Shown: piece by piece, positions 2 to 59,575 of the stretch
Layout: every line of letters starts with the position of its first letter
Position numbering within the stretch: position 1 is the first letter of the stretch
Origin: a virus
Lineage: Duplodnaviria; Caudoviricetes
Virus record (IMG/VR): IMGVR_UViG_3300038312_000327
Span: 11,782 to 75,781 of that record
Direction: 5' to 3' (one strand)
Length of the DNA stretch: 64,000 nt
Made by a program: the position numbers and the translations under genes
Notes under the pieces: model-generated
Database searches by the model: none
What the model saw: the letters and a program-made list of their open reading frames with translations, nothing else
Told to the model about the DNA's origin: nothing

Positions 2-1180
2 GGGCACTTCCCTGAACATTCAGTTATGCGCAACTGCTGTTCCGATACTTTGTACAACAAACTCTCATACGACACACGTAACATTGTTAGAGGTGTGAAA
101 TACCATGAGATTTTCCCTGATGTCAAATTAAGCGGTGATAAACAAAACGTAAAAGGATGGAATCTTCAGTCAAGTAGGCAAGTAGGTTACTTCGGTGCCG
201 GTGTTGGTGGTACCGTCATCGGTTTTGGCGCTTCCATGCTTGCCATGACAGACGACTTGTACAAATCACTTGAAGATGCTCTTTCAGATACGAACAATGA
301 AAAGGTTTGGAGCTGGAAGCAAGGTACTCACGACTCACGTATTGAGGGTAATTGCTGTTCAATAGATATTGGCACCAGATGGAGTGAAACGGACGTTCTG
401 GGACGCTTGGAATCGTCCGGGAAGTACGACGAGATTATCCGCATCGCTGCACTTGATGAAAATGATCAGTCATTCTGCGAGGATGTGCACACGACAGAAT
501 ATTATCACGAGATCCGGCAGGATCTGGATGAATCTATATGGGAAGCTGAGTACATGCAGAACCCCATCGAAGCAAAAGGATTGCTCTTCCCGAAATCGGA
601 ACTTAATCGATACAGAAGGAAAGATATCATCGATCGCAAACCTGAAGGTGTGGTCAGTGCCTGTGACGTGGCCGATGAAGGAGATGACGACTTCTCATCA
701 CCATTTGGCAGGATATTTGGTGATAAGATCTTCATAACTGACGTGGTATTCACAAAGGATCCAGTCGAGATATCAGAACCACGAATCACGCAGATGATCA
801 TAGACGAGAAATGTGACAAAATAAGGGTTGAATCAAACAATGGTGGCCGTATCTTCGGGAAGAATGTACGTACCGGCCTTGCAAAGAAGAAACATAAATG
901 CGAAGTGCAAACCAAGGCAACCACATCGAACAAGGCAACTCGTATCCTCATGCGCTCCGGATGGATTAAAAAGCATTGTGTGTTCCTGCATGATGACGAT
1001 ATCATCAAAGGATCCGATTATGACCGATTCATGAAATCACTCACCGGCTATAAAAAAGAGGGCGGGAACAAACATGATGATGCTCCAGATTCACTCACAA
1101 TCCTTGCTGAATATATTGAGGATATCGGATTGCGTAAAACGATGAATAAGAAAACGGTGGATAAGAGGGTGATTGCTTAA
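2..1180 (+). CDS. Terminase large subunit, C-terminal part (5' truncated by window)
   Basis: Frame open to window edge; ATPase C-lobe (MTDDLYKS, IGTRW, YMQNP) plus RNase H-like nuclease motifs (ACDVADEGDD, VESNNGG, KHDDAPDSL). Confidence 0.9.
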   Translation, partial: GHFPEHSVMRNCCSDTLYNKLSYDTRNIVRGVKYHEIFPDVKLSGDKQNVKGWNLQSSRQVGYFGAGVGGTVIGFGASMLAMTDDLYKSLEDALSDTNNEKVWSWKQGTHDSRIEGNCCSIDIGTRWSETDVLGRLESSGKYDEIIRIAALDENDQSFCEDVHTTEYYHEIRQDLDESIWEAEYMQNPIEAKGLLFPKSELNRYRRKDIIDRKPEGVVSACDVADEGDDDFSSPFGRIFGDKIFITDVVFTKDPVEISEPRITQMIIDEKCDKIRVESNNGGRIFGKNVRTGLAKKKHKCEVQTKATTSNKATRILMRSGWIKKHCVFLHDDDIIKGSDYDRFMKSLTGYKKEGGNKHDDAPDSLTILAEYIEDIGLRKTMNKKTVDKRVIA

Positions 1181-1968
1181 TTGGTATTTAAATCAATTGC
1201 ACCTTTTACGACAACCCCAAGGCGTTTTGAATTATAATAATCACACAGATTATTATACATTTCATTGGTAATTTTAAAATTAGGATTTGCCTCAACTTTG
1301 TAACCTTTGGATATTAAAATATTAACTAATTCGCTAATAGGTACATTGAACTGTCTAGCAGCTTTTACGATTCTCATCGAAGATGGAGAATTTGGAGAAT
1401 TTGGAGATCTTGGGGTTATTTCTTCTAATATTCGAGTCTGCGTGTTCTTAACTTCGTCTAAGACATCAATAATATATTCATTAATACCTCCAACATTGTC
1501 TTCTTTAAACTTAAAATCTCTTTGAGCCCTGTATATTGGGTTATCAAAAGCGCTTTCATTAAAATCTAATGATTTGATAGCTCCTCTAATTTCCCTTTGT
1601 AGTTTAGGGACACCTTTCATGTCATTTGTATAAAAAATTGTTCGTTCAGTCGTAATGTCAAATGGGAGCTTTGTCCCAAACTCAGCAATGGTTATGACAT
1701 GTTTAGCGGTTGAATGTCTAACAGCTAACTCATACATTACATTTGGGTTTAATTCTGTTAAATTAGCAACAACCAGATCATTATTCATAATACACTCTAA
1801 TACTTGTTTAGTAATTGAGCCTGGTGATGGCATTTTATGAGGAATATCGACTTTAAAATCAAATTCTTCAAGAATCGGCTCAATGGATTCAATAACACCT
1901 TCTGCTTTTAATCTTGTTTCAGATAACTCATCACCGATTGGTGTAATAATAAAGCACCTCTTGTCCAT
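1177..1968 (-). CDS. Nucleoside 2-deoxyribosyltransferase-like (TIR/NDT fold) protein with C-terminal IF2-N-like domain
   Basis: CFIITPIG...DLVVANLTELNPNVMYELAVRH motif; C-terminal MRIVKAARQFNV...KGYKVEANPNFKITNEMY. Confidence 0.75.
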   Translation of the reverse strand: MDKRCFIITPIGDELSETRLKAEGVIESIEPILEEFDFKVDIPHKMPSPGSITKQVLECIMNNDLVVANLTELNPNVMYELAVRHSTAKHVITIAEFGTKLPFDITTERTIFYTNDMKGVPKLQREIRGAIKSLDFNESAFDNPIYRAQRDFKFKEDNVGGINEYIIDVLDEVKNTQTRILEEITPRSPNSPNSPSSMRIVKAARQFNVPISELVNILISKGYKVEANPNFKITNEMYNNLCDYYNSKRLGVVVKGAIDLNTN

Positions 1969-2053
1969 TTCGACTTAGTTTTAAATAGTTATTAATCAAT
2001 AATGCAAATATAGCTAAAAACCTCACCCCCTTTATATTTTACAATAAAAATAT

Positions 2054-5000
2054 ATGGGAGTTATCAACAAAGACGGTGCACTATACTTCGCTACCGGCAT
2101 CGACAATTCCGGTCTGAAAAAGGATTCCGAAGAGGCGAAACGATACATTCAGGATATATCTGATTTCGCAAAGAGCACTGGTGCGGTGTTAGGAACAGCA
2201 TTCAGTGTGGGGGTGTTGAAAAATTTTAGTGATGAAATTATCAACGTCCGGGGCGAAATGCAGATGCTGGAAACGTCCTTCGAGGTGTTGCTCGGGGGAA
2301 AGGGCGTGCCGGCATTCATGTCCGAAATAAAGCAGTTCGCGGTTGACAGCCCTCTATCCCTATCCGGTGTATCGCAGGCCGCTCAAACATTGCTCGGTTT
2401 TAATGTCGAAGCCGAAAAGGTGATCCCAACCATTAAACAGTTAGGCGATATCTCGATGGGGAGCGAACAGCGTTTCCAGTCCCTCGCACTCGCTTTTGCT
2501 CAAATGTCCTCTACCGGCAAGCTGATGGGCCAGGATCTTCTGCAGATGATCAACGCCGGATTCAATCCACTTTCCGTCATGTCTGAAAAAACCGGGAAAT
2601 CTATTGCAGACCTTAAAAAAGAAATGGAGTCCGGGGCAATATCGTCTGAAATGGTTGCCGATGCCTTTGCATCCGCCACGGCCGAGGGTGGCAAATTCTA
2701 TGGAATGACGCAAAAACAAGCCGAAGGTATCAAAGGTTTACAGGCGCAACTGGAGGGTGCATGGCAGGATACATATAACGAGATGGGCCAAAAGGGTGAA
2801 AAACTCATCACGGACATGTACAAGATGGGCATTTCCGTCGCTGAGAACTATGAAAAGATTGGCCGGGTGATAACATCCCTGATTGCTACATACGGGGCGT
2901 ATAAAGCCGCTCTTGTGGTTGTAACGACTGCTGAAAGTGGTTGGACACTGGCTCAAATGACTAAATACAAATGGCTGGTGATGGTTGAGAAAGCGCAAAA
3001 GCTTCTGAATGCTACGATGCTCAAAAATCCATATGTAGCTGTTACCGTTCTTGTTGTAGGTTTGATATCCGCTATTGTTGCATTGCGTGACCGAACAACT
3101 ATGATGGAAAAAGCCCAGAAGCAATTAAATGCCGTACTCAATGAAGCAAAAGACCGGAAAGAATCATTGAAAAATAAAGGTGGTGAGTTAATTTCCGTCC
3201 TGACAAGTGAAACTGCAACAGTTTACCAGCAAATCAAAGCATATAAGGAATTGTTGACCCTGCTTCCACAATTGAAAGGCAAATCACTGGACGAAATCAA
3301 AGCCATGAAGCCGGAAGATATCGAAGCGTTGTTTGCCGAAAGGTCGGACCAAGTGGAAATCGAAACCGTCCGCAATAGGTATGAAGAACTGACTAAAAAC
3401 ATAGAGGGATATCGGAAAAAAATAAAAGAGCTTGTGAAAGATGGAGCCGATGATGCGGAGATATCATATTATCGAAAACAACTTGGTCAGACCCTTGCAG
3501 ATTCGAAGGTATTAAAGGGGCAAATCGATGAAATTGCCCGAATCCAGAAAGAAGCATTCTATCAGGAAAACCCTGAGGCAAGGAGAATGGATCTTCAAGT
3601 GCAGCGTACCAATCTCCTACAAAAGGAAAAAGAACTGACTGAAAAGATCGGTAAGGCTCAAAATGACTTTGAAAGTGCCAATGACCGGCTTCATCTTGGT
3701 GCTGTAAAGTCCCAGATCAAAGGCATCGATGAACAGATAGCCTCTTTGAACAAAACCACCGGAACAGCTGCAGTCAAGAACCATGCTTACTGGGAAAAGA
3801 TTAAGGATGATGCGGAAAAAGCAAGAAAAGCGTTGGGATCTGACAAGCAGGGCTCAGATGAATGGGATGAATTGACCAGAAAAATAAATCAGGCAAATGC
3901 TGAATTAAAAAAGTATTCCGACAAGGAAGCAGGCGCAACACAGGCAAACCAGACTGGCGACGCGAACCGTAAGCTGCTTGACATGATAAAACAGAATGCG
4001 CTTGAAGAAAAGCGGCTCAGGGAGGATCTTGACAACGAAATATCCCAGGCCGAAATAGACGCCATGGCCGATGGATTCAACAGAACGATGAAACAGCGAG
4101 AGTTGAACCATCAAATTGAAATTCAAAACCTCAAACGGCAGAAAGAGGATTATATTAACCGTATCATCCAGGCACGGAAAGAGGAGTTTGAAGCAGAAGA
4201 AGAGGTCAAATCAAAGAAAGACAAGAACTATGTAAAGAAATCATTCGACGGGAGTACTGTCAAAGTTGATGCATCCTCATACGATGATATCATATCACAA
4301 AAAAACACCCAGTACGTCAATGATACGAAGAAATCGTGGAATGACCTGGCATTGGAATTCGGTGATTACTACCAGAAGCGGCTTGCTATCGCAAAAAAAT
4401 GGGAAAGCGAGATAGCCGAATTACCCTCGCAATTTCAAGCAGGTGCAAGGATCAAGATGAATGCCGAGCTGGCCAGTCTTGACGATGAATATAAGAAAGC
4501 AACTTCCGCGATCACTGAACTTTTCAAGGACACTTCGGAAAAAACCTCGAAAGAACTACGAAAGATAGCGGACGAAGCTGAACGGATGAAGGATTTCGTA
4601 TTAGGTGGTCAGTGGGATGCCGGTAGCGGTGCAGACTTCGGTATCACAGAAGCGCAATTCAAATCTCTCAACGAGGAATGGAGTAAATCCCCAGAAAAAC
4701 TCGAAGCTATCATAAAAGCCATCAAGGAGCTTAAGCGAGAGGCCTATTTGAAGGAAAATACATTCAAAGCAATCAGTAACAGCATCGAGGCGATATTAGA
4801 CCCGAAAACGGGCGGTAAAGACAAAAAGAAAGCCTGGTCGGACCTTGCAAACGGCATTGGAGAGGTAAATGATATGGCGCAAAGCGTCGGGAATAATATC
4901 TCTTCCATCTTTTCCGCGTTTGGCAAGGATGATGGTGCCGATCTGGCCGGGAACATCACGCAGCTTGTAGGGGGCGTTGGAGAGGCGGGTATGGGTATTG

Positions 5001-5998
5001 CTCAATTGTATAGTGGGGACATTATTGGAGGTATCAAAAGCCTTGCATCAGGAATTACCAATGTCGTAACCTCTATCACACGAATGAACGATGCTGTAAA
5101 GGAGAAAAAAATACAACAGCTGCAAGCCCAAATCGACGGTCTCGAAAAATCATACGATGCTTTAGGTGATGCGATTGATAAAGCGTATTCCAAAGACGCC
5201 TCAAAACTCATCGAGCAACAGAATGTGCTTCTGAAACAACAGCAATTGCTGATAAAACAGCAGATCAAGGAAGAGGAAGCAAAGAAGAAAACCGATAAGA
5301 ATAAAATCAAGGAGTGGCAGGCCACTTATGACGAAATTGATAAACAGATATCCGAAAACAAGGTCAAAGCCGTTGACGCCATATTCGGTGAAGATATACA
5401 GTCTGCTATTGATAATTTCGCTCAGGCGTATGTGAATATGTGGGCAGCCGGGGATGATAAGGCTAAATCACGGAAAGATTTCGTGAAAAGCATGATAAAA
5501 GGCATGATTCTCGAAGCGATGAAAGCGGACGTATCGAAGCCAATGGAAGCGATCCGTAAAAAGCTTGAAGCATTTTGGTCGGATGACCGTATTACAGATC
5601 AAGAAGCCGATATCATTGACCAGATGGTCGCAGACTTGCAAAATCAACTCGACAAAAGGTATTCATGGGCAGACAAATACATTAAGGATGACATCTCATC
5701 ATCCGGCGTTACCGGCGAACTAAAAGCAGCTATGACCGAGCAAACCGGATCGCAACTCGTCGGATTATGGAATATGACGGCTATGGACATCAGGCAAATC
5801 AAAGAATTCTTCGAAAAAAACCCACCTGTGGATGTGGCAAAAGAATTGAACAGCCTTCTCAATGAATTGCAAGCAATACGACAGAACACGAGAGATGCTG
5901 CTGACAATACATCGTATCTCGAAGATGGATTGAAAAAGCTGGAAGAAAAGCTTGATGATATAAAGAAAAATACGAAACCCAATACCAGCAGGATATAA
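2054..5998 (+). CDS. Tape measure protein
   Basis: 1314 aa, helical/coiled-coil; tape_meas-type N-terminus (QMSSTGKLMGQDLLQMINAGFNPL). Confidence 0.93.
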   Translation: MGVINKDGALYFATGIDNSGLKKDSEEAKRYIQDISDFAKSTGAVLGTAFSVGVLKNFSDEIINVRGEMQMLETSFEVLLGGKGVPAFMSEIKQFAVDSPLSLSGVSQAAQTLLGFNVEAEKVIPTIKQLGDISMGSEQRFQSLALAFAQMSSTGKLMGQDLLQMINAGFNPLSVMSEKTGKSIADLKKEMESGAISSEMVADAFASATAEGGKFYGMTQKQAEGIKGLQAQLEGAWQDTYNEMGQKGEKLITDMYKMGISVAENYEKIGRVITSLIATYGAYKAALVVVTTAESGWTLAQMTKYKWLVMVEKAQKLLNATMLKNPYVAVTVLVVGLISAIVALRDRTTMMEKAQKQLNAVLNEAKDRKESLKNKGGELISVLTSETATVYQQIKAYKELLTLLPQLKGKSLDEIKAMKPEDIEALFAERSDQVEIETVRNRYEELTKNIEGYRKKIKELVKDGADDAEISYYRKQLGQTLADSKVLKGQIDEIARIQKEAFYQENPEARRMDLQVQRTNLLQKEKELTEKIGKAQNDFESANDRLHLGAVKSQIKGIDEQIASLNKTTGTAAVKNHAYWEKIKDDAEKARKALGSDKQGSDEWDELTRKINQANAELKKYSDKEAGATQANQTGDANRKLLDMIKQNALEEKRLREDLDNEISQAEIDAMADGFNRTMKQRELNHQIEIQNLKRQKEDYINRIIQARKEEFEAEEEVKSKKDKNYVKKSFDGSTVKVDASSYDDIISQKNTQYVNDTKKSWNDLALEFGDYYQKRLAIAKKWESEIAELPSQFQAGARIKMNAELASLDDEYKKATSAITELFKDTSEKTSKELRKIADEAERMKDFVLGGQWDAGSGADFGITEAQFKSLNEEWSKSPEKLEAIIKAIKELKREAYLKENTFKAISNSIEAILDPKTGGKDKKKAWSDLANGIGEVNDMAQSVGNNISSIFSAFGKDDGADLAGNITQLVGGVGEAGMGIAQLYSGDIIGGIKSLASGITNVVTSITRMNDAVKEKKIQQLQAQIDGLEKSYDALGDAIDKAYSKDASKLIEQQNVLLKQQQLLIKQQIKEEEAKKKTDKNKIKEWQATYDEIDKQISENKVKAVDAIFGEDIQSAIDNFAQAYVNMWAAGDDKAKSRKDFVKSMIKGMILEAMKADVSKPMEAIRKKLEAFWSDDRITDQEADIIDQMVADLQNQLDKRYSWADKYIKDDISSSGVTGELKAAMTEQTGSQLVGLWNMTAMDIRQIKEFFEKNPPVDVAKELNSLLNELQAIRQNTRDAADNTSYLEDGLKKLEEKLDDIKKNTKPNTSRI

Positions 5999-12460: not shown

Positions 12461-12985
12461 CTATTGATTGGGATAAGGCAGAAATACAAAAGCGGTGTCA
12501 AACAGCCGATAACATTCGGTGTAGTTTTCACTGTTGAACGCTGCCTCTATCAACGGGCGGGCGTTATTGATGATCTCATCAGGCACATAAGCGATTGTGT
12601 CATTATTAACGTCGGTAATTACTACATTGGTGGCATATGTCAGGTCTTTGTAGTATTCACCTTCCGAAGTGATAACGTCAATCCCAAGCATTTTAAGAGA
12701 CGGTGTATTAAAATCTCGCTGTGAGTCCATAAAAGTGCGGGCAATGTGTTTCGGAGTTTCAAAGTAGGCATTACCGGCGTAGTGTGAAGTCCACTTGATA
12801 TTGACAGCATTTTGTACAACTTCGAGAGCCGTTAATCCAGTGATAGTCGAGCGAAGCTGGACGCCCTTTGCGGGTTTTAGAATTATCATTGCATTAGGGT
12901 CAAGCTGACCTTTATCTACGATTTCTTTCGGGTCGCAATTAACAAAAAGAGCGACGGCCAATAATAAGAATAGAATTTTTTTCAT
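12461..12985 (-). CDS. Lipoprotein (cargo gene)
   Basis: Signal peptide MKKILFLLLAVALFVN-C lipobox followed by acidic DPKE. Confidence 0.75.
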   Translation of the reverse strand: MKKILFLLLAVALFVNCDPKEIVDKGQLDPNAMIILKPAKGVQLRSTITGLTALEVVQNAVNIKWTSHYAGNAYFETPKHIARTFMDSQRDFNTPSLKMLGIDVITSEGEYYKDLTYATNVVITDVNNDTIAYVPDEIINNARPLIEAAFNSENYTECYRLFDTAFVFLPYPNQ

Positions 12986-13085
12986 AGCGCTAAATTTTTA
13001 ATTGATACAAAATTAACCTTTTATCCAATAAGAACTAACTTGTCAATCTAAAATATAAAAAAATACCGCTTAGAGGGTAAGAAAA

Positions 13086-14543
13086 TCAATAGATTCCTGA
13101 TTTTATTTTCAGATAATTGCTACAAGCTTCATTTAGTATATTCCTTGTAATGTCGTGAGCATATTCAAGTATATTTTCACTTTTAAAATCAACAAAGGCA
13201 AGTAATTCTTTTGTCAATCTATATCTAATTATTATAGTACTATCTAATATGGTATATTCGTATGATGGATCCATATTATAGATTCTGAATCTGTTTTTTG
13301 AATAATCAGCTAATGCTATAAATGTTCTAATAATCTTTTCAAGGATTTCATCATTAAAATATTCTGATATGAGTTTATTCCCAAGTATCTCTATTTTTAA
13401 TTTAAGATCTTTGTCTGTGCCCATTAAATCACTCATTAAATCTAAAACGATGAAAGGAGCAAACGCTGTGTTGTAATTATAAGATTTCCAATTAATTGGA
13501 ATCATGTAATCTTTTATACTATAAGGTTTGTTTGAATACTTTAATAAAGACCGTAAATTAATTAAATTATTTTTAATGCAGAGTTTAATCAAAAATTTTA
13601 ATGCCGACGAACATGTATATAAATCATCTCTAAAATTTAAAATATCATTATAGGTCGAATCAAATCGAATTGATTTAAATATTCTGTCAACAGACTCTTC
13701 AACCAGAAGATGATTATCAAAGAAAAAAATATCTCTATCATAGAATTTATCAATGTAACCAGCAAAATCAACATCTAAACCATATTTTGAGTGGAATATT
13801 TTTCGAACATTATTAATATCACACACTAACATTATTTTATCAAAGCCGTATTTTATTTCATTTTGCTGATAGTAATCCGAATGTGCTGCAAAGATATTGA
13901 AAATCCTAAAAATATGTTCAGGGTCTAATCTATCCAAATCGTCAATTATTAAGACTGTTTTTTTATTTGTATTCTCGGCTTTGTTTTTCCAATCATCAAT
14001 TAACGAATCTAACAACTCTGTTATTAAATTTGATTCATAGATTGAGCCGTTCTTATTTTTTTGTGTATGCAAATAATCTAACAAAATATCATAATCAGTT
14101 TTTTGAACTCTTTCTTTATACTCTTCAAATGATTTATTCAGTTTTAAGATTTGGGGAAGCAATTTTAAAGCTTTGCCAATTTTCCCTGAAAATTCAGCAA
14201 CGAGAGATATTAGCTCATTGATATTGTTCTGAATAAAAAAAGGCAGTAAAAGGTTATTTGAAAAATCAATTTTCTCTGACTCGTCTATAATTTCTAACAG
14301 CTTAAAAATTACATCGAATTTAATATATTCAAAAATATCATCATTGGATGAAACCACGTAGTGAACAGGGTATATGAAAAAAGGTTGATATTCTCCATTA
14401 CCATCAAAAAAATTATTTAAAAAGTATGTTTTCCCATTTCCAAAAGGAGCTGAAAATATAATTTTTTTGTTCTCTTCTAACAATAAGAATTTTTGGAAAC
14501 GTTGAATTTCAGAATCAATACTAATTATTATTTTGTCATTCAT
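13086..14543 (-). CDS. KAP-family P-loop NTPase (cargo gene)
   Basis: Walker A APFGNGKT, Walker B LIIDDLDRLDP; very AT-rich; TATGTTTG promoter at 14568-14575. Confidence 0.8.
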   Translation of the reverse strand: MNDKIIISIDSEIQRFQKFLLLEENKKIIFSAPFGNGKTYFLNNFFDGNGEYQPFFIYPVHYVVSSNDDIFEYIKFDVIFKLLEIIDESEKIDFSNNLLLPFFIQNNINELISLVAEFSGKIGKALKLLPQILKLNKSFEEYKERVQKTDYDILLDYLHTQKNKNGSIYESNLITELLDSLIDDWKNKAENTNKKTVLIIDDLDRLDPEHIFRIFNIFAAHSDYYQQNEIKYGFDKIMLVCDINNVRKIFHSKYGLDVDFAGYIDKFYDRDIFFFDNHLLVEESVDRIFKSIRFDSTYNDILNFRDDLYTCSSALKFLIKLCIKNNLINLRSLLKYSNKPYSIKDYMIPINWKSYNYNTAFAPFIVLDLMSDLMGTDKDLKLKIEILGNKLISEYFNDEILEKIIRTFIALADYSKNRFRIYNMDPSYEYTILDSTIIIRYRLTKELLAFVDFKSENILEYAHDITRNILNEACSNYLKIKSGIY

Positions 14544-16089: not shown

Positions 16090-17760
16090 ATGCCGTCCTT
16101 ATTATCATTTCACGACCAGCAGCATATTACCCGTATGTTTGTCCAGGAACAGCGGGTAAATATGATATTTAACCAGTTCGTTTCTTCCATTGCACCCGAA
16201 ATGCGAAAATGGAAAGATGCCGGCAATAAAAACAGCGTGTGGGTTCGCAATCCGGGCATTGAAAAAGCTATCGATAAATACCTGGTCCAGCTGCAATCCA
16301 ATCTCGAAAAAGAAATCAAATCCGGGCAAACGAAAGCCTGGAATGAGGCGGTCCTGAAGAATGATAAAATGGTAGAGAGCTATATCAAAGGAATGTCACT
16401 TTCTACTATTGTCAAGGAAGGGTTGTTCAGACGCAACCTTGATGCTCTCGAATTGCTTCAAAACAGGACCGAAAACGGGTTAAATATTTCGCAGCGTGTA
16501 TGGAATATTGCAGACCAGACAAAAGGCCATGTGGAACTATTCCTTGAAGGTGGTATTTCTACCGGTAGGAGCGCAGACCAGATCAGCCGGGATTTCAGGC
16601 AACTGTTACAAAATCCAGAGAAGCGTTTCCGACGAGTACGCAATAAAGAGGGCAAGCTTGTAATGTCCAAGCCGATGAAAGACTATCATCCCGGCCCGGG
16701 AGTCTACAGAAGTTCAAAGATGAACGCCATCCGTGTATCGGCTACCGAAACAAATATGGGATACCGGTTGAGTGATTCGGAGCGATGGAAGCAGCTTGAT
16801 TTCGTGTTAGGATTTGAGGTAAAGCGTTCCCGGAATGGTCATCCGTGCGCAATATGTGATGCGTTGGTGGGTAAATATCCGAAAGATTTTGTTTTCCCCG
16901 GATGGCACCCTTTCTGCATATGTATTGCTGTTCCAATTGTGATGGAGCATGAAGATTTTGCGGATTTTCTTTTGACTGATCAAATTCCTGAAAATAAATA
17001 TGTAAAAGATATACCAGGTAAAGCACGGGAATGGATGGATGGCTATATCAAAAAGACCGGAAGTGTGCCATATTTCGTGAAACTAAATGCAAAGTGGCCT
17101 CATGATAAAAACAATCCATCGATTTTATCGAAAGTGCAGAAAGGACAAGAAGCAAATAAAATAGCAGATTTTGGAATAACATCAATAATAAAACCAGAAA
17201 ATGAAAGGACGCTAATTCAAGCAAAATGGGATGAGCAAAAATTATATAACGAAATAAGGAAAACAGAAGACGAAATCAGGATGAATAAAAAATTTGAAAC
17301 TGCGGTAGCTTTTGATACATCAGGGAATATCGTTTTGGATAAGCGAGGAGAAGCTTCTTTCGTACAATTAAACGGCACCGACATGGATAGGCTAAAAGAT
17401 ACAGTATTTACTCATAATCACCCGAGAGGATGGGGTTATCCTGAAAAATCGTTGGGTAGAATAGGAAATTCGTTTAGCTCCCAAGATATATATACTGCAA
17501 TAAAGGCAAATGTTCAGGAAATGCGAGCCGTAACTCCACATTATACATTCTCGATGAAAAGACCGGAGAGCGGATGGGGCGATATTAACAGCGTTAGGAA
17601 TATTATCGAAAGTGAAAATAATAAACTAAGCAATGAAATGTGGAAAGGAATAAATAGTGGCATATTTAAACCGGAAAGGGCCTCTGCTATTCATTTTCAT
17701 ATACTCTGGAAGCGGGTAAGCAAAAAAATGAATTGGAATTATTCAAAATCGAAAACTTGA
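16090..17760 (+). CDS. Head morphogenesis (MuF/gp7) protein with C-terminal JAB/MPN-like toxin domain
   Basis: MuF motif CAICD...GWHPFCICI; C-terminal E...THNHP...SFSSQD JAMM-type motif. Confidence 0.8.
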   Translation: MPSLLSFHDQQHITRMFVQEQRVNMIFNQFVSSIAPEMRKWKDAGNKNSVWVRNPGIEKAIDKYLVQLQSNLEKEIKSGQTKAWNEAVLKNDKMVESYIKGMSLSTIVKEGLFRRNLDALELLQNRTENGLNISQRVWNIADQTKGHVELFLEGGISTGRSADQISRDFRQLLQNPEKRFRRVRNKEGKLVMSKPMKDYHPGPGVYRSSKMNAIRVSATETNMGYRLSDSERWKQLDFVLGFEVKRSRNGHPCAICDALVGKYPKDFVFPGWHPFCICIAVPIVMEHEDFADFLLTDQIPENKYVKDIPGKAREWMDGYIKKTGSVPYFVKLNAKWPHDKNNPSILSKVQKGQEANKIADFGITSIIKPENERTLIQAKWDEQKLYNEIRKTEDEIRMNKKFETAVAFDTSGNIVLDKRGEASFVQLNGTDMDRLKDTVFTHNHPRGWGYPEKSLGRIGNSFSSQDIYTAIKANVQEMRAVTPHYTFSMKRPESGWGDINSVRNIIESENNKLSNEMWKGINSGIFKPERASAIHFHILWKRVSKKMNWNYSKSKT

Positions 17761-20483: not shown

Positions 20484-22405
20484 ATCGAGTAGGAGGAAAA
20501 CGAAGTAGTTTTCTTCCTACTTTCGTTTTCCGACCTCTCACACCACCGTACGTACGGTTCTCGTATACGGCGGTTCCTTAACATTTCACTCTAACCGTTT
20601 TATAATAATCCGAGAAGAAAACGTAACCGGCTTTTCTTAAACGCTCGTCAGTAACTGTTCGGCTAAGGATAAAACTATTGGCTACATGCCAATAGCCCTT
20701 TCTGGTATTTGCCCACTCATATGCCTTGTATCTGTTGATACCCAGCTTAACAAGATTAGCTACCTTGGTTCTGATCCGTTTCCATTGTTTCCATATCACC
20801 ATACGTAGCCTTCGACGCAACCAGGCATCCGTTGTTGTGAGTAACGTTTTAATGTCTGCCAGTTTGAAGTACTGCACCCAACCTGTTATATACTGGTTTA
20901 GTGCTGTCTTCCTGCACTCATTCCCCCATCCGTTGCTTCGGGATGTAAGTTCTCTAATTCGAGCTTTCATCTTTTCCACACTTTTGGAGTGAACCCTCAG
21001 CCTGCATTCTCCCTTGTATCGGTAAAAACTATAGCCAAGGAATTGGATATCCCTGATGTAGGCAACTTTCGTTTTGTTACGATTGACTTTCAGGAAGAGT
21101 TTCTTCTCAATGAACGAGATAATGCTCTCCATCACTCTTTCGGCACTTCGCCTACTCTTGCACAGTATTACCAGATCATCCGCATAGCGAACGAACTTGT
21201 GTCCCCGTTTTTCGAGTTCCCTGTCCAGCTCACCCAGAAGGATATTTCCCAAAAGAGGACTTAATGGTCCTCCTTGCGGAACTCCCTCATGGCTCTCTTC
21301 GAAACAGACTCCATCTTTCACTCCTGCATTGAGATACTTATGTATAAGTGAAACCACTCTCCCGTCCTTGATAGTACGGGATAAGACCTCTATCAGTTTG
21401 TTATGATGTACGGTATCGAAGAAACGCTCCAGATCCATATCTACGGCGTAGATGTAACCCTCGTTGATATACTGTTGACATTTTCTGAGGGCTCCGTGTG
21501 TTGAGCGTCTGGGACGGAACCCATAGCTATGGTCACTGAATTCAGGTTCATAGACCTGAGACAGCTTCTGTGCAATGCCCTGCTGGATAACCCGATCTAC
21601 TACTGTGGGGATACCCAGCTGGCGCTGCTTCCCGTCTTCTTTGGGGATGTATACCCTTCGTGTCGGATTGGGGCGATACTTGCCCCCCAGAATGGACCCG
21701 ATCAATACATCCTTGTTCCCGACAAGATAATCTTTCAATGATTCAACCTCCATCTTGTCTATACCTGCTGCGCCATGGTTGCTCTTTACCCGTTTGTAGG
21801 CAGCGTTAAGGTTGGAAGGTGAAAGGATGTCTTCCAGCAATCCATTCTCTTTACGGTGTTCATGTCCGGTGAGGTTGTTTTCAGTTATCCATAGGAAAGT
21901 CTGCCCTGTCGCATGGCTTTCGGATGCCGTCCTATTATTCTGCGCTACAGGTCTCTGATATATAGAGATTTTCTGCTTTCGTCCTTTCATAACGGTAACT
22001 TTCATTGACTGCTCGACCATTAAGGTTCAGCCCTTCCCATATCCGGTCGTGATGTGGTACTATGGCTTCTGCTGACTTCTCACGATGAACTTGTTTTGAC
22101 CATGCTTCATACTCCGTTTCCGCATGTTCGTGAGACCTCCCGCGGTAAGGCAGTTAACTTTCATTCCATGTCCCCGCCATATTTACACCCCGACGTCCGT
22201 GTAATCTTTGGACTTTGACTTGTTTTGCAGTCTCGTCCCGACGGGTATGCCTGATATGATTCGTGTCCCTCGGGGCGGAACTTTGCCTTAAGCTTCCTTC
22301 AGATTCCGCTTCGCAACGGACACCCTTGCCCTCGGCTAATGGTTGGCGATCACAAACCCCCATAGTGGACTTTCACCACCAAGTTAACTGCCATGCACGG
22401 CACAC
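20484..22405 (-). mobile_element. Group II intron, bacterial class C (IIC)
   Basis: 5' GTGTGCCG at 22405; domain V GAACCGCCGTATACG...CGTACGTACGGTGGTGTGAGAGG with CGC triad; 3' end CCTACTCGAT at 20484; inserted just after a hairpin + T-tract. Confidence 0.93.
20578..22020 (-). CDS. ltrA: Group II intron reverse transcriptase/maturase (no En domain; real start probably MKGRKQK at 21990)
   Basis: RQLGIPTVVDR, GVPQGGPLSPLL, FVRYADD motifs; maturase X domain. Confidence 0.95.
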   Translation of the reverse strand: MVEQSMKVTVMKGRKQKISIYQRPVAQNNRTASESHATGQTFLWITENNLTGHEHRKENGLLEDILSPSNLNAAYKRVKSNHGAAGIDKMEVESLKDYLVGNKDVLIGSILGGKYRPNPTRRVYIPKEDGKQRQLGIPTVVDRVIQQGIAQKLSQVYEPEFSDHSYGFRPRRSTHGALRKCQQYINEGYIYAVDMDLERFFDTVHHNKLIEVLSRTIKDGRVVSLIHKYLNAGVKDGVCFEESHEGVPQGGPLSPLLGNILLGELDRELEKRGHKFVRYADDLVILCKSRRSAERVMESIISFIEKKLFLKVNRNKTKVAYIRDIQFLGYSFYRYKGECRLRVHSKSVEKMKARIRELTSRSNGWGNECRKTALNQYITGWVQYFKLADIKTLLTTTDAWLRRRLRMVIWKQWKRIRTKVANLVKLGINRYKAYEWANTRKGYWHVANSFILSRTVTDERLRKAGYVFFSDYYKTVRVKC

Positions 22406-30175: not shown

Positions 30176-31456
30176 TTACTCGTCCATTTCCTGTGTTAAT
30201 CTTTGAGCAACAGCTTTATCTAATAGATTTTTCACTAATCCCTCTAGATTTTTATTTTTTACTATAGCCGAAAAAGTCATTGCTCCCATTTCAATGAACA
30301 GTTTTCCCATTAATTCATCAGCGAAACTACTTGATACAACTGGAACTCCGTCCCAATCAACAACAATTGGGAGTCCTTTCTTTGCTGTTAACAAATTTAA
30401 AATTTTATTCCTAATTTGTAGTCCTGATTTTCTGGATCCAAACCCTGTTGACTCTTCTTTCATTCTAAGTAAAAGGCAATTGGATTCAGGAACTTCATAT
30501 TTAAGATCAATTATATCCAGAGGATAATAATTTTCAAAATTATCAAAGCTTAAAGCTTCCGAAATTGAAAAATCATCAACAATATTTATTTCACCACTAA
30601 CTAAAGTTCCATCGTATCCAGCAGGACTTAAACGTTTTCTAGTTGTTTTATTATCTGTGATAGTCAGCCTTCCATTTCCACTAAGAATTTCAAGGGAGCC
30701 CCCAGTCATAGTCGTAATTCTTAAGGATCCTGCAAGTCCATTTCCTTGCCCAATTTTGGAATTTCTTGTAACACCCGCTTTGATTGCCTCTCCTATTGCG
30801 TCTAACTCTGTTCTAAGCTCCGGGTATCCTTCTTGCATAGATTTCAGTATACCTATCCCTGAATCTGATACAGCGAATAAAATCTTATTTTCTTTATAGT
30901 GAGTGCTTGCTTGAATAATTCCTCCGTGTTTAGATTCAGAATGATTCAATACATTATCTGTTATTTCATTTATAGACCATTCAAGACCAGATGTGATATC
31001 TTTAGGAATTCTCATCGTCCTTAACACAACATCCATAAAGTCATTCACTGATTTTTGCTGTTCTTCTGCATTCTCGAAACGTCTAGTAACTAGATGTCTG
31101 TCATAAATTGAATCTGACTTTTCGAACTGATCGGGAGATAAATAGTGAGCCCAGTTAACTGATCTGAATAACTTTCTCGTTTCATAATCTAGAGGAAGAC
31201 GAACTTCAACTTTAACACCCGTCTCTCTTAAATCATCGATAATACAAATTACCGGTAACATTCCGTCTGCAAATACTTTTTTAACATACATGAAATCTAC
31301 TACTACTGAATCAAACTTCAGTTGTTTGAAATAATTAACTGCAGAGCTAAATTGCAAGACTGAATACGTATTTATTTTATTAGTGAAAAAGACGATGCTA
31401 TTATGTTTTCTGATATAACGACAATTCGAATATCTTTGAAATGAAGTGTTTCGCAT
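30176..31456 (-). CDS. STAS-like + HATPase + DUF4325-like fusion (cargo gene)
   Basis: EITDNVLNHS (N box), DSGIGI (G1), GQGNGL (G2); C-terminal DWDGVPVVSSSFADEL; TATTTTTG promoter at 31486-31493. Confidence 0.75.
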   Translation of the reverse strand: MRNTSFQRYSNCRYIRKHNSIVFFTNKINTYSVLQFSSAVNYFKQLKFDSVVVDFMYVKKVFADGMLPVICIIDDLRETGVKVEVRLPLDYETRKLFRSVNWAHYLSPDQFEKSDSIYDRHLVTRRFENAEEQQKSVNDFMDVVLRTMRIPKDITSGLEWSINEITDNVLNHSESKHGGIIQASTHYKENKILFAVSDSGIGILKSMQEGYPELRTELDAIGEAIKAGVTRNSKIGQGNGLAGSLRITTMTGGSLEILSGNGRLTITDNKTTRKRLSPAGYDGTLVSGEINIVDDFSISEALSFDNFENYYPLDIIDLKYEVPESNCLLLRMKEESTGFGSRKSGLQIRNKILNLLTAKKGLPIVVDWDGVPVVSSSFADELMGKLFIEMGAMTFSAIVKNKNLEGLVKNLLDKAVAQRLTQEMDE

Positions 31457-34588: not shown

Positions 34589-35053
34589 TTAATAATTTTT
34601 CAATCTCAACTTCGTTTCAGGCTGTAACCCTACTCTCAGCCTGAATTTCTCATTCTTAATTGTTTCATTCCGCTTCCGGTGTACACGCTCGATTAATTCA
34701 GGATTATTCTTCATTGCTGGTACATGCCCTGGCTTGAACTGGTACATTTCACCCCCGGGAACACTCCATCCTTTTTGTCCTTTCGTCGGATTTGGACTAC
34801 GGGCATCCCTTGCCATTTGTGAGATTTTCTTCCTGTTTTTATCCAGGAACGCAGGTTCTTTCTCTAATCCGAGTTCCCGGGCTTTGCGGATCATAGTCCT
34901 CATACTAACCCCAAGTTCATAAGCTAAATCACGGTTAAACGAAGTAGCAAATTTTGAAGTTATGATATCTACCATTTCATCGGTCCACTCAATACCAGTT
35001 ATCCTTCTTTTTGACGGAATAATTGTAGGAATATAGAGTTCGTAGTAGTGCAT
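34589..35053 (-). CDS. Phage protein, HTH-like with FKPGH motif
   Basis: ELGVSMRTMIRKARELGL; resembles N-terminal part of phage HNH proteins, no HNH motif seen. Confidence 0.55.
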   Translation of the reverse strand: MHYYELYIPTIIPSKRRITGIEWTDEMVDIITSKFATSFNRDLAYELGVSMRTMIRKARELGLEKEPAFLDKNRKKISQMARDARSPNPTKGQKGWSVPGGEMYQFKPGHVPAMKNNPELIERVHRKRNETIKNEKFRLRVGLQPETKLRLKNY

Positions 35054-46574: not shown

Positions 46575-48138
46575 AATTCTACTTTCTACGCTTTTAGTTG
46601 GTTTACCATGTAACTATTTTATCAACAATACTTTGTTGTTCACTTGCGGTTCTACGCAAATAAATGCGAGTGGTTTCGATGCTTTCATGACCCATTAAAT
46701 CGGCTAATAACGAAATATCATTAAACTTTTCAAGGAAATTTTTGGCAAACCGATGCCGAAATGAATGCGGATAAATAACTTTTTTATTGAGACCGTATTT
46801 TTCTGCAAAATATTTGAGTTGTTGAGCAATTCCTCTTGCTGAAATCCTATCACCAAAGCGATTTTTGAAAATATAACCTGAGCTTATTTCTTTGTTTTTT
46901 AGCCAAATAGTAGCCTCATCTCTAAGTTTCTTGGGTATGTAAAGACGCCTAATTTTACCGCCTTTGGTGTACAAATCCAAATAGCCTACTTCTATATGTT
47001 CAACTTTTATTTGAAGCAGTTCGCTTATACGAGCACCGGTCGCGGCAAGAAACCATATAACAAAATACCATTCGGTATATCCGTCATTTTTTAGTTTGGT
47101 TTTCAGAAACTTATAGTCCGCATCGCTGACCACGTTTTCAAGAAAATTCTTCTGCTGAACTTTTACGAATTTAAGTTTCAAACGCTCTTTGTTGGTAAAT
47201 TCAAGAAACTTGTTTAGTGCCTGCAATCTTAAATTCACAGTTTGAGGTTTGAAGTGTTCGATTAAGAAACCCTTGTAAGCCAATAGGTTTTCTTTGTCAA
47301 TCTTTTCGTATTGGGCAATAAAATGATTGACAGTCCATACATAAGACCTAATCGTGCTTGCGGAAAGGTCGTTCTTTTCAAGAAATTTTTGAAATTTTGT
47401 TACCATATTTTTTGTTGTTTAAAAATTTACGGTAACAAAACGTTTTTTTTAAGTATTCGCCTGTAAGTTTACTTGCATTTTATCCAACATCTTGAAAATC
47501 TCCTCGATTTTTTCAACTATTCGTAGTTGTTCGGATAGCGGGGGAATTGGGTATAAAAAAGTAGTGATATTGGTGTTGTTTATCGAAGGAGAATTATCTC
47601 CTTTCATAAATGAATTCAAGCCGTTTATTACATAGTTAGATAGCATTAGAAAATATAAATACCTTGGATATAGCAATTTGTTTGGTTTGCATACGTAAAA
47701 ACCCGTTGATGCTATACACTTATCATGTTTTCTGTCAACATAAGCAATGTTTTCAAGGTACGGTCTTACCATTGAGAATAATGTATCGCCCTTATTTATC
47801 AATCTACTAGCTCTGCTTGGAGCCTCAGAGACTTTTAACTTCCTACTTTCTTTGATTACATGTTTTTCATTGTCAATGGCTTCAATATCTATGTAATTAA
47901 AGTAATCTCCGACTGGTTTCTTGTTTTCCATTGGATTAAAACAGGTGAACCCATTAGCCCAAATCCAACCACTCGGCACTTCAAACGGATAAGGAAATTT
48001 ATCGGAAGTTGTTTTTGATAATTTCAGCTCCTTCCGTATTCGCTCTAAAAGTACCGAAGCTGGCTCATCGCTAGAGTCTTGCGGTACAAGTTTACCTCGA
48101 ATGGCGAGGTCTAAAACTTTGGATTTAGTTTGTGCGAT
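45883..48138. repeat. ~158-bp imperfect inverted repeat in hsdS central conserved regions (45883-46040 / 47981-48138)
   Basis: 41-bp perfect core GCCATTCGAGGTAAACTTGTACCGCAAGACTCTAGCGATGA. Confidence 0.9.
46603..47406 (-). CDS. Tyrosine recombinase/invertase of hsdS shufflon
   Basis: TGARISEL, HSFRH, LMGHESIETTRIY; lies between inverted hsdS copies. Confidence 0.9.
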   Translation of the reverse strand: MVTKFQKFLEKNDLSASTIRSYVWTVNHFIAQYEKIDKENLLAYKGFLIEHFKPQTVNLRLQALNKFLEFTNKERLKLKFVKVQQKNFLENVVSDADYKFLKTKLKNDGYTEWYFVIWFLAATGARISELLQIKVEHIEVGYLDLYTKGGKIRRLYIPKKLRDEATIWLKNKEISSGYIFKNRFGDRISARGIAQQLKYFAEKYGLNKKVIYPHSFRHRFAKNFLEKFNDISLLADLMGHESIETTRIYLRRTASEQQSIVDKIVTW

Positions 48139-48879
48139 ATATTGCACCAAAGAGAGAGAGCTATCTTCAATTTCATCGATTACTTCGATAACAGAATCTG
48201 CAATACGAACTATTCGTTTTTGTTCTTCTATGGGAGGTAAAGGAAAAAGTGCATTTTCTCCATCATGAGTACCCAATCTGGGCATTTTAACTCCATAGCA
48301 ACATTCTGCAGTATATTCCAAAAAATAACTAGACATTAATACATGTCTTGCAAACTTAGGAACAACAAATCCATTAAAATCCAAAGGCAGAATTTCGGTA
48401 GTACAGTATCCTTCGACGTCGGCAACTAAAACTTTATTCAAATAGGTCCTTAGTTTGCTGTATAAAACATCTCCTTTTTTGAATTTATTTCTTACACTTT
48501 TGGTCTCTTTTTCGTTTTTATGAACTCGTTTTAGCAGTTTTCCCGTATCTTTCTCAATATCTTCCAAATCCAAAATCCATGCATTCTCGTTTATTTCTGA
48601 TGGACTAGCCTTTTCATTTTTCCCATAATCGCAGAGATTACCTAATTTCACCCACTCCCAGCTCTCAGGCACCTCAAACGGCACTTCCTTCTCATAATGC
48701 GACTTAGCACCACTTTTTTTCTTATCCGCCTTAATCTTTTTTTCTTTGATTAGACGTTCTTTCTCAGCTCGTATTCTTTCGAGCAATACAGATGCAGGTT
48801 CGTCATTTGGGTCTTGTGGAACGAGTTTACCACGAATGGCAAGGTCTAATATTTTTTGTCGTAATTGTTTCGTGTTCAT
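47449..48879 (-). CDS. hsdS: Type I R-M specificity subunit (expressed copy)
   Basis: LDLAIRGKLVPQD repeats, two TRDs, PLPPxxEQ motifs. Confidence 0.93.
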   Translation of the reverse strand: MNTKQLRQKILDLAIRGKLVPQDPNDEPASVLLERIRAEKERLIKEKKIKADKKKSGAKSHYEKEVPFEVPESWEWVKLGNLCDYGKNEKASPSEINENAWILDLEDIEKDTGKLLKRVHKNEKETKSVRNKFKKGDVLYSKLRTYLNKVLVADVEGYCTTEILPLDFNGFVVPKFARHVLMSSYFLEYTAECCYGVKMPRLGTHDGENALFPLPPIEEQKRIVRIADSVIEVIDEIEDSSLSLVQYIAQTKSKVLDLAIRGKLVPQDSSDEPASVLLERIRKELKLSKTTSDKFPYPFEVPSGWIWANGFTCFNPMENKKPVGDYFNYIDIEAIDNEKHVIKESRKLKVSEAPSRASRLINKGDTLFSMVRPYLENIAYVDRKHDKCIASTGFYVCKPNKLLYPRYLYFLMLSNYVINGLNSFMKGDNSPSINNTNITTFLYPIPPLSEQLRIVEKIEEIFKMLDKMQVNLQANT

Positions 48880-48983
48880 ATTTTATCATTAGCAAGTTAC
48901 AAGCAAGTTAAAAACCCAACTTTAACATCTCATAATCAACACATTAATGGTTTAAGTTGATGTAAAAGCAAGTTGCAGGCATG

Positions 48984-52732
<3,749 letters not shown>

Positions 52733-52753
52733 TCTTATTGACTTATTATTTCT

Positions 52754-55459: not shown

Positions 55460-55638
55460 TCGTATTAAATGAAAACTTCCGATAATGAGAAATTATCAGA
55501 AGTTATATGCAAATGTAAGGAAAATTATCGGGTTTTAGATTTTTTTAGTTGATGAAATACAAATACAATGATCAGGTTTGATAATTTCTGCTATTATTTT
55601 GTGTTTTTATTATCAGAAATTTGAAGTTGCTAACAAAA

Positions 55639-56616
55639 TCACATTCTCCGTCCCTTTCTCTTCTTCTGTTGCGCCCTCAGTCTCCGTTGAAAAGCCGTTT
55701 CCTCATAATCCTCACCGTGAACATTCAGCAGACTGCCGATGCCGGATGAAATTTCGCCTGCGATATTTGCCGTAGTCTCCATCGCGGATAGCCCGAGGTT
55801 TTTTTCTTGCTCCACCGACGGTTCGTAAATCGGTACAACCGTCTGTCCGATTTGTGGTTTCACGTCTTCCAACCCGAATTGGCGAAACAGCGAACGATAC
55901 CCAAATTCTCGCCCGATTTCCGATGCTTTGAACGTTTCACCTTCGTACAAAAATCGAAAACCGTAGGCTTTGTCTTGTTTGTTTCGCATGGTTTGGATGG
56001 TTATGCCCTGTTTTTGAAGTTCTCCGGCGAAAGAAAGAAAACCCTCTTTTCCGGTACCGACTTTCTCGCCCAAGAGTTTGTAAGCGATTTTTCGCACTTC
56101 GTCTTTCTTTGTTTCCCGCGTTTTATCCGCTTTCGGGTTTTGGTATCGTTTTTTCCCCACCACCTGGTTGGCGATGGTCAGTCCCATTTCTCCGGCAATT
56201 TCCTCGGCAGCTCTTGCCGATCGGTTGCTTACAAAATCCGTCTGATACACCTTGCCGTCTATCCCGACTCGATTGGCAATCAGATGGATGTGCCTGTTTT
56301 TAGTATCTTTGTGCGATACGGCAAACCATTGGTGGTTTTCCAATCCCATTTTTCTGGCAAATGAGGTGGCGATTTTGTTTAAATCTCCGCTTTTCAGTTT
56401 CGTAATATCATCGGGCGCGATGCCGATTTCGAAGCGAAGAAACTTGTTTTTGCACCGATTGCCGTATTGATTCACAAGCTGCATATCCCGAAGAATTTCG
56501 CCGGCAGTGTAACCTGCAATCATATTTCGGGCAACAAATCCGTTTAGTTTGTTCTCCTTCAATACGTAATTTATCACGTTGCGTCCGTGCGAAACGGCTT
56601 TGCCTTTTGCTATCAT
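55639..56616 (-). CDS. Relaxase (MOBP-like)
   Basis: N-terminal Tyr (INYV), HKDTKNRHIHLIANR His triad. Confidence 0.88.
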   Translation of the reverse strand: MIAKGKAVSHGRNVINYVLKENKLNGFVARNMIAGYTAGEILRDMQLVNQYGNRCKNKFLRFEIGIAPDDITKLKSGDLNKIATSFARKMGLENHQWFAVSHKDTKNRHIHLIANRVGIDGKVYQTDFVSNRSARAAEEIAGEMGLTIANQVVGKKRYQNPKADKTRETKKDEVRKIAYKLLGEKVGTGKEGFLSFAGELQKQGITIQTMRNKQDKAYGFRFLYEGETFKASEIGREFGYRSLFRQFGLEDVKPQIGQTVVPIYEPSVEQEKNLGLSAMETTANIAGEISSGIGSLLNVHGEDYEETAFQRRLRAQQKKRKGRRM

Positions 56617-56627
56617 TTTCGCCCGAA

Positions 56628-56942: not shown

Positions 56943-57009
56943 ATAGTTGAAATTTAGGTTGAAAAACCGTGTTTTTCGGCTGACGAGAACGCAGTGATTG
57001 CAGCCAAAT

Positions 57010-57070
57010 CCTCCCCGCCCGAAGCGGGGACAAGATTCAGTTTGTGGGAACAAACTGACGTCTTGCACGC
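57010..57070. other. Candidate oriT
   Basis: CCCCGC/GCGGGG hairpin plus CAAGA..CAGTTTG/CAAACTG..TCTTG inverted repeat directly upstream of mobC. Confidence 0.6.
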
Positions 57071-57139
57071 TAATTCGAAAAGTTTGCCGGGCATCGGAAA
57101 TTCTGCTTGCTCGGTGTGCTTGTCGTTCTCCTTTATTTT

Positions 57140-59571: not shown

Positions 59572-59575
59572 GGCA

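Follow-up and report, generated by a model that had tools for sequence, protein, structure and literature searches.

A phage-borne fusion of an N-glycosidase-like fold with an IF2-type N-terminal domain, from a widespread family of probable prophage defence effectors

Why should a phage carry, within its structural genes and on the opposite strand, a gene that joins a nucleotide-processing enzyme fold to a piece of a bacterial translation factor? The question is raised by the open reading frame (ORF) P0001, located at 1177..1968 on the minus strand of a 64,000-nucleotide stretch of caudoviricete DNA (positions 11,782 to 75,781 of the IMG/VR record IMGVR_UViG_3300038312_000327), which is called the window throughout. 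P0001 is a well-supported domain fusion, and it belongs to a widespread, uncharacterised family of probable prophage defence effectors. As to its role, we give about an even chance to the reading that it is a lysogen-expressed anti-phage effector encoded by one gene, with a C-terminal module resembling the N-terminal domain of translation initiation factor IF2 (IF2N). That it is a single-gene anti-phage effector, of the superinfection or abortive-infection type, of the lysogen or carrier cell is judged an even matter, or marginally better than that. Enzymes of the nucleoside 2'-deoxyribosyltransferase (NDT) and TIR folds are established anti-phage effectors.

The ORF is clean, comprising 263 codons plus a stop, and its start codon is consistent with the homologues, whose proteins open with MKKKCFIITPIG. 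A two-domain architecture with a (SPN)n linker had been proposed from the letters alone (hereafter the sequence-only reading) and was borne out by the sequence, the AlphaFold2 (AF2) model and the homology searches. The features are given below, with the predicted local distance difference test (pLDDT) as the measure of model confidence.

1177..1968, minus strand: whole P0001 ORF, 263 aa plus stop.
1540..1968, minus strand: N-glycosidase-like head of the NDT/DNPH1/MilB-TIR fold, residues 1-143 (AF2, Foldseek, VIA, PHROGs).
1714..1749, minus strand: invariant motif NPNVMYELAVRH, residues 74-85 (88-sequence alignment), with the codon of the putative catalytic Glu80 at 1729-1731.
1417..1539, minus strand: helical stalk, helices 144-157 and 162-184 (family-wide conservation, NPIYR...YILDxLDxI; AF2).
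1378..1416, minus strand: low-complexity (SPN)n linker, residues 185-197 (sequence; pLDDT about 67-70).
1222..1377, minus strand: IF2 N-terminal-like domain of Bacteroidota type, residues 198-249 (profile, BLASTP, hhalign, fold).
1180..1221, minus strand: unstructured C-terminal tail, residues 250-263 (pLDDT below 50 at 254-263; tail unconserved).
2005..2012, minus strand: TATATTTG, candidate -7 promoter element (match to the TAnnTTTG consensus, 37 nt before the ATG).

The linker sequence PRSPNSPNSPSS occupies residues 186-197, and in the (SPN)n linker identity to orthologues is 21%. The motif MRIVKAARQFNV...ITNEMY, which had been placed at nt 1240-1377, is present at residues 198-238, but its coordinates are nt 1255-1377.

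The AF2 model of P0001 was built from 88 homologues and had a mean pLDDT of 85.9. In this model, residues 1-143 form a flavodoxin-like three-layer alpha/beta domain with a parallel sheet, with pLDDT mostly above 85. The top PDB matches of the head in Foldseek were NDTs (E 4.3e-6 to 8pqr, probability 1.0), followed by DNPH1, by the CMP/hmCMP N-glycosidases BcmB and MilB and then by TIR domains at about 5e-4. Re-alignment with VIA gave Z 15.2 against MilB (139 residues aligned, root-mean-square deviation (rmsd) 3.0), Z 14.8 against DNPH1 (124 aligned, rmsd 2.4) and Z 13.0-13.5 against the TIR domains of SPARTA, TIR-STING and SARM1. Of the NDT/TIR-like head that had been proposed, the fold was thus recovered on the AF2 model, but with MilB and DNPH1 (Z 14.8-15.2) as closer relatives than TIR; as modelled, the head is at least as close to these nucleotide N-glycosidases as to TIR. 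At the sequence level the head matched only the PADLOC TIR 'Effector' profile PDLC00733 (E 3.7e-5). PHROG matches of P0001 were phrog_10872 at 4e-52 and phrog_3634 at 6e-45, and PDB sequence searches with the full-length profiles A2 and A3 yielded no solved relative.

Residues N74, N76, M78, Y79, E80, L81, A82, R84 and H85 were invariant in the 88 sequences. They include the glutamate of 'MYEL', E80, to which the sequence-only reading had drawn attention. In the AF2 model, the motif opens helix 75-87, which follows strand 65-69 (strand 3) and contains E80. The catalytic Glu of NDT-fold and TIR enzymes stands where the helix behind strand 3 begins, and E80 may be equivalent to the DNPH1/NDT nucleophile, to judge by the DNPH1 'GYELG' motif. 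We regard E80 as the putative catalytic residue. P0001 was also predicted to form a homodimer, with a median ipSAE of 0.49 over three runs and at most 0.00 in three controls. Of proteins with solved structures, 20 of 30 pairs pass the ipSAE mark, as does 1 of 23 single chains. The dimer runs had at least 67% of contacts in common, the partner pLDDT was at least 70, and the predicted interface comprises residues 73-86, overlapping the invariant motif. This result may stem from model memory, as solved NDT and DNPH1 dimers resemble the predicted one. The head is probably a dimeric N-glycosidase fold.

P0001 shares with DNPH1 (Rcl), MilB/BcmB and NDT the fold (VIA Z 14-15, 115-140 residues aligned, Foldseek 4e-6 to 1e-4), a putatively catalytic Glu, in a hydrophobic-YEL-type motif, where the helix behind strand 3 begins, and a dimer that is predicted to form via that helix. 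It differs from them in having no sequence-level match to solved structures and a PF05014 match below threshold, in its stalk and C-terminal module, and in being a mobile-element cassette rather than a metabolic gene. With TIR effectors (ThsB, SPARTA TIR-APAZ, TIR-STING, CBASS TIR) it shares the fold (Z 13-13.5), the PADLOC profile match and a putatively catalytic Glu at the same topological position; unlike them, it has neither Pfam TIR nor TIR_2, is closer in fold to MilB/DNPH1 and has no partner sensor or signalling gene. The effector of retron-Eco1 (Ec86) is likewise of NDT fold and is an anti-phage effector that is reported to hydrolyse NAD(P)+ (PMC12673091). In contrast to that system, the P0001 gene has no adjoining reverse transcriptase or msDNA partner, the only reverse transcriptase of the window (20578..22020) is of group II intron type (GIIM) and 18 kb away, and regulation of P0001 would be in cis, via a protein domain.

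The C-terminal domain had been recognised as the IF2_N repeat of Bacteroidota IF2. In the hidden Markov model search that had been proposed as a check, Pfam IF2_N (PF04760) aligned residues 196-246 of P0001 with positions 2-51 of its 53, scoring 14.6 bits (E 0.029) against a cut-off of 25.3. For a more specific comparison profile A4 is used here, which represents seven C-termini, taken as DNA references. Searched against 1.84e9 representatives, A4 matched 3,212 proteins at E<=1e-3, of which 974 had E<=1e-10. Among its 150 best matches the IF2 G-domain motif GHVDHGKT was found in 6, and at least 49 run on as IF2 past the domain. Just 34 of these 150, a set that includes genuine IF2 proteins, reached PF04760 at E<=1e-3, so that the Pfam model under-detects the Bacteroidota subtype. 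In BLASTP, residues 199-249 of P0001 were 43% identical to residues 9-59 of P0207 (51 aa, E 7e-12), the cluster of which includes the NCBI record 'translation initiation factor IF-2 [Bacteroidales bacterium]'. Alignment of A4 with six GHVDHGKT-bearing IF2 proteins in hhalign gave a probability of 99.1% (E 1.6e-18). In five of five Bacteroidota genomes (Prevotella, Odoribacter, Dysgonomonas, Draconibacterium and Flagellimonas) A4 had exactly one match per genome, at the first residues of an IF2 ORF of 912-987 aa, and in none of five non-Bacteroidota genomes (Cohnella, Pseudomonas, Pantoea, Bacillus and one Acidobacteriota) was a match found. A PDB sequence search with A4 returned no relative, and a word-indexed search of the domain against longer proteins returned nothing, where the exhaustive profile search succeeded.

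The isolated domain was modelled over 52 residues, with pLDDT above 90 over its residues 1-50. Its top fold match in the wide VIA comparison was Thermus thermophilus IF2 (4b3x_A, residues 3-69; Z 9.3, rmsd 3.0, 66 aligned). The first Foldseek match was also an IF2 (4kjz_B, TMq 0.69), but with E 1.4. The next VIA matches were pSK1 Par (Z 6.6), RacA (Z 6.2), MerR-type regulators (Z 4-5) and PheRS B5 (Z 3.5-3.6). Taken together, BLASTP, hhalign and fold establish homology of the C-terminal domain with the N-terminal domain of Bacteroidota IF2, although the PF04760 search itself stayed below threshold. The proposed Bacteroidota type also proved right, and a Bacteroidota-type domain points to a Bacteroidota host.

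Relative to IF2N/N1 (PF04760), to which it is homologous by sequence and fold (99.1%; Z 9.3), the P0001 copy differs in its position at the C-terminus of an enzyme, in its score below the Pfam threshold and in its faster evolution. Within the fusion clade, identity to the window protein is 75% for the head and 38% for the C-terminal domain, and the window domain is 43-51% identical to IF2 N-domains; these values fit a fast-evolving offshoot of a slow-evolving parent. In a domain tree of 55 columns the NDT-fused copies fell into three groups, interleaved with IF2 and other proteins. Because support of the deep branches was low (0.09-0.85), no conclusion was drawn as to single or repeated capture. 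The net charge of the NDT-fused copies was +1.3 versus -0.5 for IF2 copies (p 0.002, from sequences that are not independent of each other), and this near-neutral charge does not decide between protein and nucleic-acid binding.

A second weak IF2_N match in the window, in an ORF at 34589..35053 on the minus strand (E 0.015), was rejected, as the subtype profile gave it only 2.2 bits. The TPR-rich proteins P0128, P0137, P0143 and P0166 were set aside as spurious repeat matches, with repeated partial coverage of profile positions 7-30. Three further proteins, P0121, P0125 and P0160, consist mostly of tandem IF2N-like domains in at least three copies. Among non-fusion proteins, P0121 (333 aa, three copies) comes closest to the window domain in the weakly supported domain tree, and it showed sub-threshold matches to the phage antirepressor KilAC domain.

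Homologues of the head numbered 3,179 in the length range searched, and the enzyme family was found in 47 phage records, almost all of Firmicutes hosts. In prophage 315.2 of S. pyogenes a member lies in the lysogeny module, between repressor and cro. Members share the conserved head and stalk, and beyond these their C-termini are entirely different. P0098 and P0100 end in a sigma70_r4 (PF04545) or GerE/LuxR (PF00196) helix-turn-helix in place of the IF2N-like domain, and many others carry an unannotated C-terminal domain of about 90 aa. The sequence-only reading had overlooked this enzyme family of thousands with interchangeable C-termini. With over 3,000 members, and frequent among the temperate phages of both Firmicutes and Bacteroidota, it nevertheless lacks annotation; the Atlas adds only automatic names of the 'nucleoside 2-deoxyribosyltransferase' type, with scores below 0.8. 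Such a family would be a simple single-gene system in which a variable terminal domain controls an N-glycosidase.

A survey of homologues, as suggested at the outset, showed that the fusion recurs: both domains are kept in about 20 protein clusters, at 53-65% identity. The collection lists P0004, one of these, in 76 blocks, and its cluster has a member from the isolate Porphyromonadaceae bacterium KH3R12. Genes of the fusion were observed in three kinds of context. In temperate phages, P0003 and P0011 are found immediately downstream of a cI-like HTH_3 gene, in the same orientation and with an integrase nearby. P0004, P0009 and P0014 are mobile-element cargo, together with genes for Schlafen-like ATPase, type III restriction-modification, HEPN_AbiU2, KAP NTPase and Eco57I-type proteins, and a further fusion gene lies beside DUF4411 and Peptidase_M78. 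In the third kind, to which the window belongs, the gene stands beside the end of a terminase gene; at locus L010 the end of the fusion gene adjoins only a stretch of 58 aa on the opposite strand with 65% identity to the C-terminus of the window terminase. No neighbour was common to the different fusion contexts. A homotypic adaptor, that is, a neighbour with the same domain, was also considered and rejected, as no other IF2N-like domain was present in the window or in any locus of a fusion homologue. Since there is neither a shared neighbour nor one with the same domain, the gene seems to work alone. The 80 best loci in a set of 185,579 species genomes were all without the fusion. In the library searched, no paper was found on the enzyme family or on the fusion. 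The defence role that had been proposed fits these contexts of lysogeny modules and defence islands.

Among the best A4 matches the IF2N-like domain was joined, often in at least two copies, to other proteins of defence type:

P0126: IF2N-like domain with LRR-Roc-COR-TIR (PADLOC ThsB-type TIR, E 8e-38).
P0152: IF2N-like domain with a Tiamat TmtA-like protein (PADLOC TmtA, E 2.6e-146).
P0148 and P0138: IF2N-like domain with KAP NTPases (PADLOC QatA and PDC-S20).
P0123: IF2N-like domain with a McrB-like AAA_5 (Pfam; PADLOC type II restriction-enzyme model, E 2e-20).
P0122: IF2N-like domain with an SMC_N/ABC ATPase (PADLOC mad3, AbiLi, AriA).
P0142: type IV restriction-like helicase with the IF2N-like domain C-terminal (PADLOC type IV restriction enzyme, E 7e-33).

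Judged by these profile matches, the IF2N-like domain recurs as an appendage on many defence proteins that are unrelated to each other, which had likewise escaped notice before. A piece of a core translation factor has thereby been recruited into immune proteins; at least six further types of defence protein carry the same domain. Papers that connect IF2_N with defence were not found.

In the window, the P0001 gene sits on the opposite strand between the genes for the large terminase (26..1180, plus strand) and the tape measure (2054..5998, plus strand). It is convergent to the terminase gene, with a 4-nt overlap with the terminase stop codon. Its GC content is 32.6%, and 23% at third codon positions (GC3), compared with 44-45% and a GC3 of 47-48% for the two flanking genes. 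By its low GC the gene is a compositional island, typical of an acquired 'moron'; it is a horizontally acquired, opposite-strand insertion within the phage structural module, and its foreign look, remarked on earlier, was thus upheld. The parent record measures 75.8 kb, is rated complete by CheckV and encodes two tyrosine recombinases. The window as a whole is best read as a prophage with adjoining mobile DNA of a bacterial chromosome. It was present in fermentation, wastewater, sludge and digester metagenomes of 14 studies.

Expression from an own promoter had been proposed on the basis of TATATTTG, which is located at 2005-2012 on the minus strand as described, 37 nt upstream of the ATG, and fits the Bacteroidota -7 consensus TAnnTTTG. 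The term 'canonical' was too strong, as this is one motif match at a chance-level window frequency; by our estimate, the chance expectation of one TAnnTTTG in the 85-nt upstream gap is about 5%. Three studies contributed RNA-type library contigs on 1205-2049, which lie on the gene and its 5' region with an identity to the window of at least 99%. In four RNA-type libraries, contigs lay only on this segment and, within window positions 1-8000, none lay on the flanking terminase and tape-measure genes. The uncovered flanks prove nothing, because the runs had been chosen with this stretch, the depth was 2-3 and the gene moves between elements. The RNA-type contigs are compatible with transcription, without proving it. 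Expression in the lysogen is tentatively suggested by the position of homologues beside repressors and by these few low-depth contigs.

In the reading of P0001 as an anti-phage effector, infection would lead the head to cleave the N-glycosidic bond of an essential nucleotide, with NAD(P)+, as for the retron-Eco1 effector (PMC12673091), or (d)NMP, as for DNPH1 and MilB, as candidate substrates. Glu80 would be catalytic, and the active sites would lie at the dimer interface. The variable C-terminal module would set the time and place of enzyme action. In the fusion clade, this module would retain the binding surface of the IF2 N-domain. Its ligand would be either an IF2N partner at the interface of transcription and translation or an IF2N-targeting phage factor, and the enzyme would be released or positioned by this binding. 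The N1 domain of E. coli IF2 and the residues following it bind the KH2/AR1 region of NusA (PMC12297416), and IF2 N-terminal domains stabilise the 30S pre-initiation complex (bioRxiv 10.64898/2026.06.26.734871). For the IF2N-like module, binding of an IF2N partner, service as bait for a phage factor and nucleic-acid binding are all live options. That the native IF2N surface is used at all, docking and decoy taken together and within the defence reading, is possible though doubtful, and docking of P0001 to ribosomes, as had been put forward from sequence, is a guess. For gut and digester Bacteroidota the question is raised of which partner the IF2 N-domain binds, and whether phages target it.

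A number of observations weigh against P0001 being such an effector. PADLOC v2 gave no system match for P0001, its one match being to the TIR-effector profile and weak (E 3.7e-5). Pfam Nuc_deoxyrib_tr (PF05014) did not match P0001 even at E<=10, and was matched by only 5 of 25 homologues (best E 3.3e-4); Pfam TIR (PF01582/PF13676) was not matched either. The head family corresponds to two PHROGs, both annotated as of unknown function, and the defence-type genomic context amounts to guilt by association. TAnnTTTG is not enriched across the window, where 71 were found and 71.3 expected. The KH2/AR1 region of NusA and the N-terminus of IF2 are both unconserved, according to the authors (PMC12297416). 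Finally, the likeness of the C-terminal domain to the DNA-binding domains of MerR, RacA and Par (Z 4-6.6) means that nucleic-acid binding would explain the fusions about as well.

This last point leads to a rather unlikely explanation, in which the effector is the same but its C-terminal domain is a small winged-helix-like DNA or RNA binder with no link to IF2, reading phage nucleic acid or tethering the enzyme to DNA or RNA. The fold matches that come next after IF2 are indeed DNA-binding domains (Par Z 6.6, RacA Z 6.2, MerR Z 4-5), P0098 and P0100 end in a sigma70_r4 or GerE helix-turn-helix, and NDT-fused copies carry a slightly more positive charge than IF2 copies do (+1.3 versus -0.5), although the charge stays near neutral, unlike that of typical DNA-binding domains. 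By comparison with McrB, the place taken by the IF2N-like domain in McrB-like AAA_5 and type IV restriction-like proteins is one usually occupied by a DNA reader. The closest relatives by sequence and fold are nevertheless IF2 N-domains, for which, to our knowledge, nucleic-acid binding has not been demonstrated.

It is unlikely that the IF2N-like domain is an integrated decoy, or a sensing and docking module shared across Bacteroidota immunity. Phages of Bacteroidota would then attack or exploit the IF2 N-domain, and unrelated immune proteins (the N-glycosidase, Tiamat TmtA-like, ROCO-TIR, KAP, McrB-like, AriA/AbiL-like and type IV restriction-like proteins) would have captured copies of it as bait, to be switched on when a phage factor binds. 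In fused sensor-effector Abi proteins of prophages, of the CapRel-SJ46 type, a conserved toxic enzyme bears a variable terminal domain that sets specificity, and in the integrated decoys of plant nucleotide-binding leucine-rich repeat (NLR) proteins an immune protein contains a copy of a host target domain. P0001 resembles them in logic only and has no homology to them, the decoy role being speculation; if it is true, bacteria would have a counterpart of the NLR decoys of plants that derives from a translation factor.

Still less probable is an enzyme that serves the phage itself, either as an N-glycosidase or transferase of nucleotide salvage or modification or as counter-defence against immune signalling nucleotides or NAD-derived signals, with the IF2N-like domain directing it to the translation machinery. 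The gene is carried by a phage, the nearest solved folds are metabolic (NDT, DNPH1, MilB/BcmB), and several relatives are named 'nucleoside 2-deoxyribosyltransferase' in database sources and the Atlas; against this, Pfam NDT was not reached, the gene lies on the opposite strand, with foreign composition and outside replication or nucleotide-metabolism modules, and its homologues occur beside repressors and in defence islands, with no phage replication genes adjoining at those loci. C-termini as variable as these would also be unusual for a housekeeping enzyme. A fused toxin-antitoxin or addiction module that stabilises the prophage or element, with the C-terminal domain as cis-inhibitor and no IF2-related trigger, is improbable: a single-gene cassette with a conserved enzyme head and a replaceable tail does move through unrelated mobile elements, and the PsyrTA toxin-antitoxin pair contains an NDT-like domain, but there is no separate antitoxin gene, no neighbour conserved across contexts and none with an IF2N-like domain. 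One protein could also serve addiction and phage defence at once, and this explanation therefore overlaps with an anti-phage effector.

Several other features of the window were recorded. Between the tail and portal genes, two more genes lie on the opposite strand (12461..14543, minus strand), one encoding a 485-aa KAP-family P-loop NTPase (13086..14543, minus strand; Pfam E 2e-8) and the other a 174-aa protein of no family; TAnnTTTG occurs 20-30 nt upstream of each (13008-13015 and 14568-14575). The pair is possibly another defence insertion. The phage region also encodes a reverse transcriptase/maturase of group II intron type (20578..22020, minus strand; RVT_1 5e-42, GIIM 5e-19). A 426-aa protein with a histidine-kinase-like ATPase and a STAS-like DUF4325 is encoded at 30176..31456 on the minus strand, with TAnnTTTG just upstream (31486-31493).

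The right third of the window (46603..63787) is not phage-like. It contains a tyrosine recombinase gene adjoining a type I restriction-modification locus (HsdS, HsdM, HsdR), within which an unannotated 772-aa protein is encoded (50414..52732), and also genes for a MobA/VirD2 relaxase, a DUF5906 primase-like protein, an AbiEii toxin with its DUF6088 partner and a Bacteroides-type integrase. This region reads as an integrative mobilisable element or a defence island. In the phage part, the minor head (morphogenesis) protein encoded at 16090..17760 on the plus strand also matched phrog_16625, 'Bxa ADP-ribosyl transferase', at 1e-52.

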